Below are positions 27,327 through 28,175 of a stretch of DNA of 64,000 nt, piece by piece. The position numbers were made by a program, and so were the translations under genes. The notes under the pieces are model-generated. The model worked only from the letters and a program-made list of their open reading frames with translations, was not told where the DNA came from and made no database searches. The stretch's first letter is position 1, and each line of letters begins with the position of its first letter. The stretch lies in sequence record PQ666542; one strand, given 5' to 3'. The stretch is from Shigella phage sb4.

Positions 27327-28175
27327 TTAATCAACTGCTATTGGATGAATAGCATTAAACTTATGAAATGCTTCTGATTTTTCTTTGCGCGAAACACACA
27401 TGCGAAGAACCTTTAATGGCTCGTCTTCTTCACCCAACGATTTTCTCTTTTCAATATTCGATGTTTTCCAACGAGCTTGCTCTGGAAACTCTCTATTGAT
27501 TTGCTCAAGAGCTCTATTATGTTTTGAATTACTACGAATTGAACTACATCCGCCAGGAGCTTGCGCTTTTTCAGATACAACCAGATATTTGAACAAGGCC
27601 AAATGCGGATAACCTTGATTAATTAAATTGAGAAATGCATACATATCTTCGCATAAATCAATTTTTCCATACCAAATTTGTTCTGTTGTAAGTTTTCCAA
27701 GGTCATACCAGGTATTCGTGAATCCATATGAATTTTCACGATAATTACCCCAAGATGAAGTAATTTTAAAAATTGGTAGACGAGCATGACCATGATAATA
27801 CCCGCAATCCATGGCATCTTCAACGTATTGAATCAATTCATAGAACTGTTCACGAGTTAACTGATTAATTTTATCTACGCAGCGACGATCATCTTACTTT
27901 CGCATTGAACTCATATGAATAGTAGTATCATCATCAATCATCCAAATTCGTTGACCTGCATACATTTCAGTAATTGCTTTGCGAGTTCCAGCAATTCCAA
28001 TAACATCATCGGGAATAGTTATAATTTTGGCTCTAGACCCGTAAGCGTCATAATAAGCTTTTTCTTCGTGTTCACGTACTACAATATGAGGTTCATAATC
28101 AGTCGGAAACATATCAAGGGCAGAAACTGCCCCTACGCGTTGATAGCTTGGAATTACGAATTGAATCATTTCCAC
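27327..28175 (-). CDS. GT2-like DNA glycosyltransferase, 282 aa; in-frame TAA at 27894-27896
   Basis: track ORFs 27894..28175 and 27327..27836 in same frame; VIPSYQR motif; occupies the T4 beta-gt slot. Confidence 0.6.

Follow-up and report, generated by a model that had tools for sequence, protein, structure and literature searches.

A predicted T2/T6-type TAGT gene in a pSs-1-like Shigella phage and an in-frame TAA that is very probably sequence noise

It is very probable that the gene between uvsX and gene 42 of Shigella phage sb4 (ba-gt) is the known T2/T6-type TAGT (beta-glucosyl-HMC-alpha-glucosyltransferase) gene, and that the TAA interrupting it at codon 92 is sequence noise that is absent from the living phage. 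We analysed one stretch of 64,000 nucleotides (record PQ666542; hereafter the window). It covers the first 64 kb of the genome of a Tequatrovirus that resembles pSs-1 and belongs to the T2/T6-type T-even phages of Shigella/E. coli. The ba-gt product would add a second glucose to the product of alpha-gt, giving gentiobiosyl-HMC as in T2/T6. The TAA belongs to a layer of unselected substitutions of about 0.5% that runs across the whole window, consists mainly of G>T, C>A, A>T and T>A changes, and also puts stops in genes vital to the phage. The coordinates of the features are collected in Table 1.

Table 1. Coordinates of ba-gt, its neighbours and the lesions of the window
Feature	Position	Strand	Details
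ba-gt (TAGT / beta-glucosyl-HMC-alpha-glucosyltransferase), predicted	27327..28169	minus	280 codons and terminal TAA; from translation and homologues
DDD, DxD-type motif of ba-gt	27927..27935	minus	residues 79-81; 11 codons before the TAA
In-frame TAA of ba-gt, codon 92	27894..27896	minus	single A>T at 27896, AAA (Lys) to TAA
N57I, private A>T	28000	minus	Asn in 8/9 aligned homologues, Thr in SP1
R85H, private G>A	27916	minus	His also in CC31 and S16
G166W, G>T	27674	minus	otherwise invariant Gly; common to GenBank record sb1 only
G200E, private G>A	27571	minus	otherwise invariant Gly
Gene 42 (dCMP hydroxymethylase; makes hydroxymethylcytosine precursor)	28166..28906	minus	intact; stop overlaps ba-gt start
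uvsX, downstream of ba-gt	26068..27249	minus	intact
alpha-gt, predicted to make the ba-gt substrate	39306..40508	minus	400 aa; Pfam AGT PF11440 3.5e-232, PHROG 2888
gp43 (DNA polymerase) stop	32043-32045		codon 178
gp44 (clamp loader) stop	33815-33817		codon 245
gp62 (clamp loader) stops	33454-33456, 33160-33162		codons 45 and 143
gp47 stop	38953-38955		codon 59
gp52 (topoisomerase) stop	1088-1090		codon 143
rIIA stops (two)	7999-8001, 7249-7251
dda stop	15134-15136
Endonuclease VII stop	47102-47104
Lost stop codons, two genes	10990-11409, 12907-13407		TAA>AAA, TAA>CAA
Genes with indels relative to pSs-1	1654-1810, 16517-17264, 17980-18605, 19666-20152
Genes with indels relative to pSs-1, continued	45016-46832 (nrdD), 51656-52684, 56398-57133
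Eighth gene with an indel	43569-43751		seen only in the three-way alignment
imm stop, common to window and sb2	29060-29311		codon 35
Stop common to window and sb2	ORF 21089-21607		codon 152
Stop common to window and sb2	43776-43884		35-codon ORF, codon 29

The ba-gt gene and its predicted product

The gene lies on the minus strand, which corrects the preliminary description. Translation shows that its frame is open throughout except at codon 92. The plus strand reads TTA at 27894-27896, hence TAA in the minus-strand frame, and the minus-strand translation from 28175 to 27327 (...TTIHMSSMRK*DDRRCVDKINQLTREQFYE..., one internal stop) reproduces exactly the peptide quoted when the in-frame TAA was first claimed. 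The VIPSYQR motif, also claimed at that time, was found at residues 5-11, and the DDD motif is unchanged in all nine aligned homologues. The frame of the "282-aa protein" described earlier is correct, but not its length. A GTG at 28175, two codons upstream in frame, would give 282 aa; the annotation of close relatives leaves this GTG unused and starts at the equivalent of the ATG at 28169, which gives 280 aa and overlaps the gene 42 stop by four bases as ATGA. CC31 and S16 have an ATG at the upstream position, and this ATG is their annotated TAGT start. The start codon of ba-gt is therefore slightly ambiguous. Sfk20, ESh16, pSs-1, sb1-3 and T2 all have the CDS at this position, with a length of 843 nt.

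Profile and homology searches were performed with the protein in which codon 92 was read as Lys. This repaired protein matched Pfam TAGT (PF20691) with 43 bits against a cutoff of 27.5, residues 3-207 aligning to profile positions 2-205 of 205, and matched PHROG 842, "beta-glucosyl-HMC-alpha-glucosyltransferase", at 3e-88; no other Pfam family was matched convincingly in the profile search. It is 96.8% identical in amino acids to the T2 protein YP_010073690.1 over all 280 residues, and the two are equal in length. Megablast of window positions 27100-28400 found 553 phage records with a top identity of 98.2%, most of which label the gene beta-glucosyl-HMC-alpha-glucosyltransferase, and tblastn with the repaired protein found 688 phage records. 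A sequence search of the PDB found no solved-structure relative of the ba-gt protein.

The gene order 41-40-uvsX-ba-gt-42-imm-43 is the same in the window, T2 and pSs-1. The partners of ba-gt are present in the same window and are both intact: gene 42 for the HMC pathway and alpha-gt for supply of the acceptor. The alpha-gt gene was found intact where it had been reported, with a strong Pfam match (Table 1), and has no internal stop when its frame is compared with that of pSs-1. By profile, near-identity, synteny and partner genes, ba-gt is predicted to be a T2/T6-type TAGT enzyme, and the T2/T6-type arrangement proposed in the preliminary description is borne out by the two profile matches and by the closeness to the T2 protein that occupies this slot.

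TAGT of T2/T6 puts a second, beta-1,6-linked glucose on alpha-glucosyl-HMC to give gentiobiosyl-HMC DNA, and its gene is syntenic with that of T4 beta-GT (PMC13216743, PMC13390438). An AlphaFold3 model of T6 TAGT has a GT-A fold that forms a sister group to GT2 (PMC13216743), and from this published model ba-gt would also adopt a GT-A fold. The earlier term "GT2-like" therefore stands at the level of the fold only; the Pfam profile Glycos_transf_2 (PF00535) gave no match to the repaired protein at E<=0.1. Among phages, alpha-GT with TAGT is the usual combination and the alpha-gt and beta-gt pairing of T4 is rare (PMC13216743). The arrangement of ba-gt with alpha-gt is already known, having been published and occurring in hundreds of Tequatrovirus genomes; as a common Tequatrovirus state, it adds little biology.

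In-frame stops and the unselected substitution layer

The window as written encodes only 91 residues of ba-gt. Codon 92 is AAA in ESh16, Sfk20, pSs-1, sb1, sb2 and sb3 and AGA (Arg) in T2, and the TAA is private to the window among these seven close relatives. All four private changes in ba-gt (N57I, R85H, K92* and G200E) alter the protein, and N57 and G200 are strongly conserved, whereas the private ba-gt changes of ESh16, pSs-1 and T2 are almost all synonymous. The 188 codons past the TAA are open and about 98% identical to those of relatives. Pattern scans across codon 92 found neither allele in IMG/VR (27-mer) or in metagenome contigs (29-mer), and exact look-up in a collection of 15 billion proteins found no N-terminal fragment of 91 aa or 93 aa and neither the alpha-gt nor the uvsX protein of the window.

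We aligned the whole window to positions 1-64100 of pSs-1 and translated it in the frames of 127 pSs-1 genes. This revealed 32 in-frame stops (28 TAA, 4 TGA and no TAG), each of which arises from a sense codon by substitution of one base. The stop codon is lost in two genes, and eight genes carry indels relative to pSs-1, mostly not a multiple of three; nrdD is broken into at least two ORFs (45294-46040 and 46044-46832). Six of the 32 stops are in essential replication genes. It is known from T4 genetics that nonsense mutations in 43, 44, 62 and 52 together result in no replication. The stops in essential genes cannot be real in a viable phage. At the stop rate of the window (32 in 18,179 codons), a gene of 280 codons would carry one or more stops with a probability of 39%; the TAA in ba-gt is not beyond chance for this window. 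The implication of the preliminary description that the TAA is a notable feature of ba-gt is not supported, the TAA being one of 32 such stops in a substitution layer without a sign of selection.

Three stops relative to the pSs-1 annotation are common to the window and sb2 (Table 1). Either genuine divergence between lineages or errors common to both records may account for them.

The character of the layer was revealed by a three-way comparison of the window, pSs-1 and sb2 over 20-45 kb. Among 370 changes private to the window, T>A, G>T, A>T and C>A number about 40 each, equal to each transition class, whereas the private changes of pSs-1 are mainly transitions. The transversions private to the window that fall in genes are distributed over codon positions 1/2/3 as 47/39/55, and 110 of 141 are non-synonymous or create a stop. 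The window-private transitions follow the normal pattern (23/22/109), and the private transversions of pSs-1 are distributed as 7/5/29. If all G>T, C>A, A>T and T>A differences from pSs-1 were unselected, about 44 new stops would be expected, and 32 were observed. Per 1000 codons, twelve essential genes have 1.24 stops and the other genes 1.95 (Fisher p=0.42). Of the four transversion classes, only G:C>T:A and A:T>T:A contribute to the excess. TAG is absent from the 32 stops, where the substitution classes and codon usage would predict a share of about 14.5% (P=0.0065), and analysis of the trinucleotide context of the noise gave no clear context that explains this absence.

In one patch of the window, 43000-44200, differences from pSs-1 and sb2 that are private to the window number 51 per kb. 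This patch looks like ordinary T-even mosaicism rather than noise, because its closest matches are other phages, UGKSEcP1 and ESh16, at 96.8%.

Origin of the TAA

The related records sb1 and sb2 come from Shigella flexneri phages of lake water in Kolkata, and their genome coordinates are close to those of the window. Both carry a similar layer of unselected transversions and broken essential genes, at other positions. In sb2 (PQ666540.1 20001-44996, L004), gp43 is annotated in two pieces and gp46 is shortened; in sb1 (PQ666539.1 20006-45007, L014), gp41, gp43 and gp46 are each in two pieces, and private transversions of these same classes number 145 over 25 kb. The window has 24 noise-class transversions in common with sb1, G166W included, and 2 with sb2. 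The layers of sb1 and sb2, together with the changes common to the window and sb1, therefore point to a defect in the production of these sequences, which may be partly reproducible or inherited. We infer that the layer arose in sequencing, in assembly or by some other corruption of the sequence, and the true ba-gt gene would be intact and active.

Several points speak against this reading. The layer is almost all substitutions, in two of four transversion classes and with no TAG, which is odd for ordinary sequencing error, and the noise-class changes common to the window and sb1 speak in the same direction. Furthermore, a real nonsense mutation in ba-gt would be tolerable. The gene is dispensable, because gentiobiosyl-HMC is only about 5% in T2 DNA (PMC13390438). 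A genuine ochre mutation would abolish the second glucosylation and leave only alpha-glucosyl-HMC and unglucosylated HMC, either neutrally or as an escape from a host defence directed at gentiobiosyl-HMC. Point mutations in glucosyltransferases are indeed reported escapes from the Brig1 glycosylase (PMC13216743), and the open, well-conserved codons after the stop fit a very recent event. Against a genuine mutation, the TAA of ba-gt is not set apart from the 31 further in-frame stops of the window, of which six lie in essential genes; the change belongs to the unselected transversion class; it is private among the seven relatives, three of which come from the same place; and the noise rate alone accounts for a stop in a gene this size with the chance given above. 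We consider a genuine ochre highly improbable. It is somewhat less probable still that the TAA is real amid the noise, as a recent ochre knockout that would change gentiobiosyl-HMC to mono-alpha-glucosyl-HMC, possibly under an anti-disaccharide host defence.

A suppressor tRNA, programmed readthrough or a reassigned TAA could also allow full-length enzyme to be produced from the interrupted frame. The predominance of TAA among the stops and the absence of TAG would fit such recoding, and T-even phages have tRNA genes elsewhere in their genomes. We nevertheless rejected it as extremely improbable, since relatives have any of six amino acids (E, K, L, S, Q and Y) where the window has an in-frame TAA, which no single decoding would fit, and ARAGORN finds no tRNA gene in the window. 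In addition, four of the stops are TGA, TAA still terminates genes, ba-gt among them, and relatives at 97-98% identity use the standard code. It is scarcely conceivable, either, that the gene is a split enzyme, in which a 91-aa N-terminal piece that contains the DxD motif assembles into an active form with a C-terminal piece translated anew from TTG 27836. An ORF of 169 codons initiated by this TTG does follow the stop, but such an enzyme would lack the 19 conserved codons that separate the stop from the TTG, a single piece spans 80% or more of the protein in 684 of the 688 phage records found by tblastn, the inspected relatives annotate one CDS of 843 nt, and window-wide noise already accounts for the stop. 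Sequence noise remains the preferred origin of the TAA.

The window is unreliable at the level of single bases. Like the sb1 and sb2 records, it carries a layer of unselected substitutions that breaks essential genes, and therefore pseudogenes, interrupted genes and odd amino-acid changes read from the window should be discounted without independent confirmation.

Comparison with known systems

The genomes of Shigella phage pSs-1 and its relatives are collinear with the window and about 97.5% identical to it. In pSs-1, Sfk20, ESh16 and sb1-sb3 (the Tequatrovirus pss1 group), coordinates are nearly equal to those of the window and DNA identity is 97-98%. Their ba-gt is uninterrupted, unlike that of the window, and pSs-1 has zero broken genes in the compared region. 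T2 and the window have the same 42 / ba-gt / uvsX slot, the same overlap of four bases with gene 42 and an alpha-gt partner. The ba-gt of the window differs from that of T2 by the TAA at codon 92 and by N57I, G166W and G200E, which change residues conserved in nearly all homologues, as well as by R85H at a variable position.

In T4, b-gt (NP_049658.1, 351 aa) occupies the same neighbourhood as ba-gt, from gene 42 to uvsX, and segA is present beside it in this interval. Both T4 beta-gt and TAGT glucosylate hydroxymethylcytosine DNA from UDP-glucose. The acceptor differs, however, being HMC for T4 beta-gt and alpha-glucosyl-HMC for TAGT, and so does the fold, GT-B for the former and GT-A for the latter (PMC13216743). 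The check suggested earlier, BLASTP against T4 b-gt, detected no similarity to ba-gt (E=2.6), and the Pfam profile of T4 beta-gt (PF09198) did not match the repaired protein at E<=0.1. This agrees with the earlier statement that the gene is not T4 beta-gt.

More distant TAGT homologues, in CC31, S16 and Serratia phage SP1, are 47-66% identical to ba-gt, and the DDD, ENSYGFTNT and GG.SS motifs are invariant across all of them. TAGT adjoins gene 42 in CC31 and S16 and is one gene away from it in SP1. In these three phages (CC31, L009 1195-3104; S16, L011 1195-3104; SP1, L010 1192-3140), TAGT lies beside a T4-type beta-gt and does not replace it. Beta-gt and TAGT side by side were observed in Karamvirus, Gelderlandvirus and Muldoonvirus phages. 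Since a T4-type beta-gt accompanies TAGT in CC31, S16 and SP1, the pairing there is of beta-gt with TAGT and the acceptor would be a different one from that in T2 and the window, presumably beta-glucosyl-HMC.
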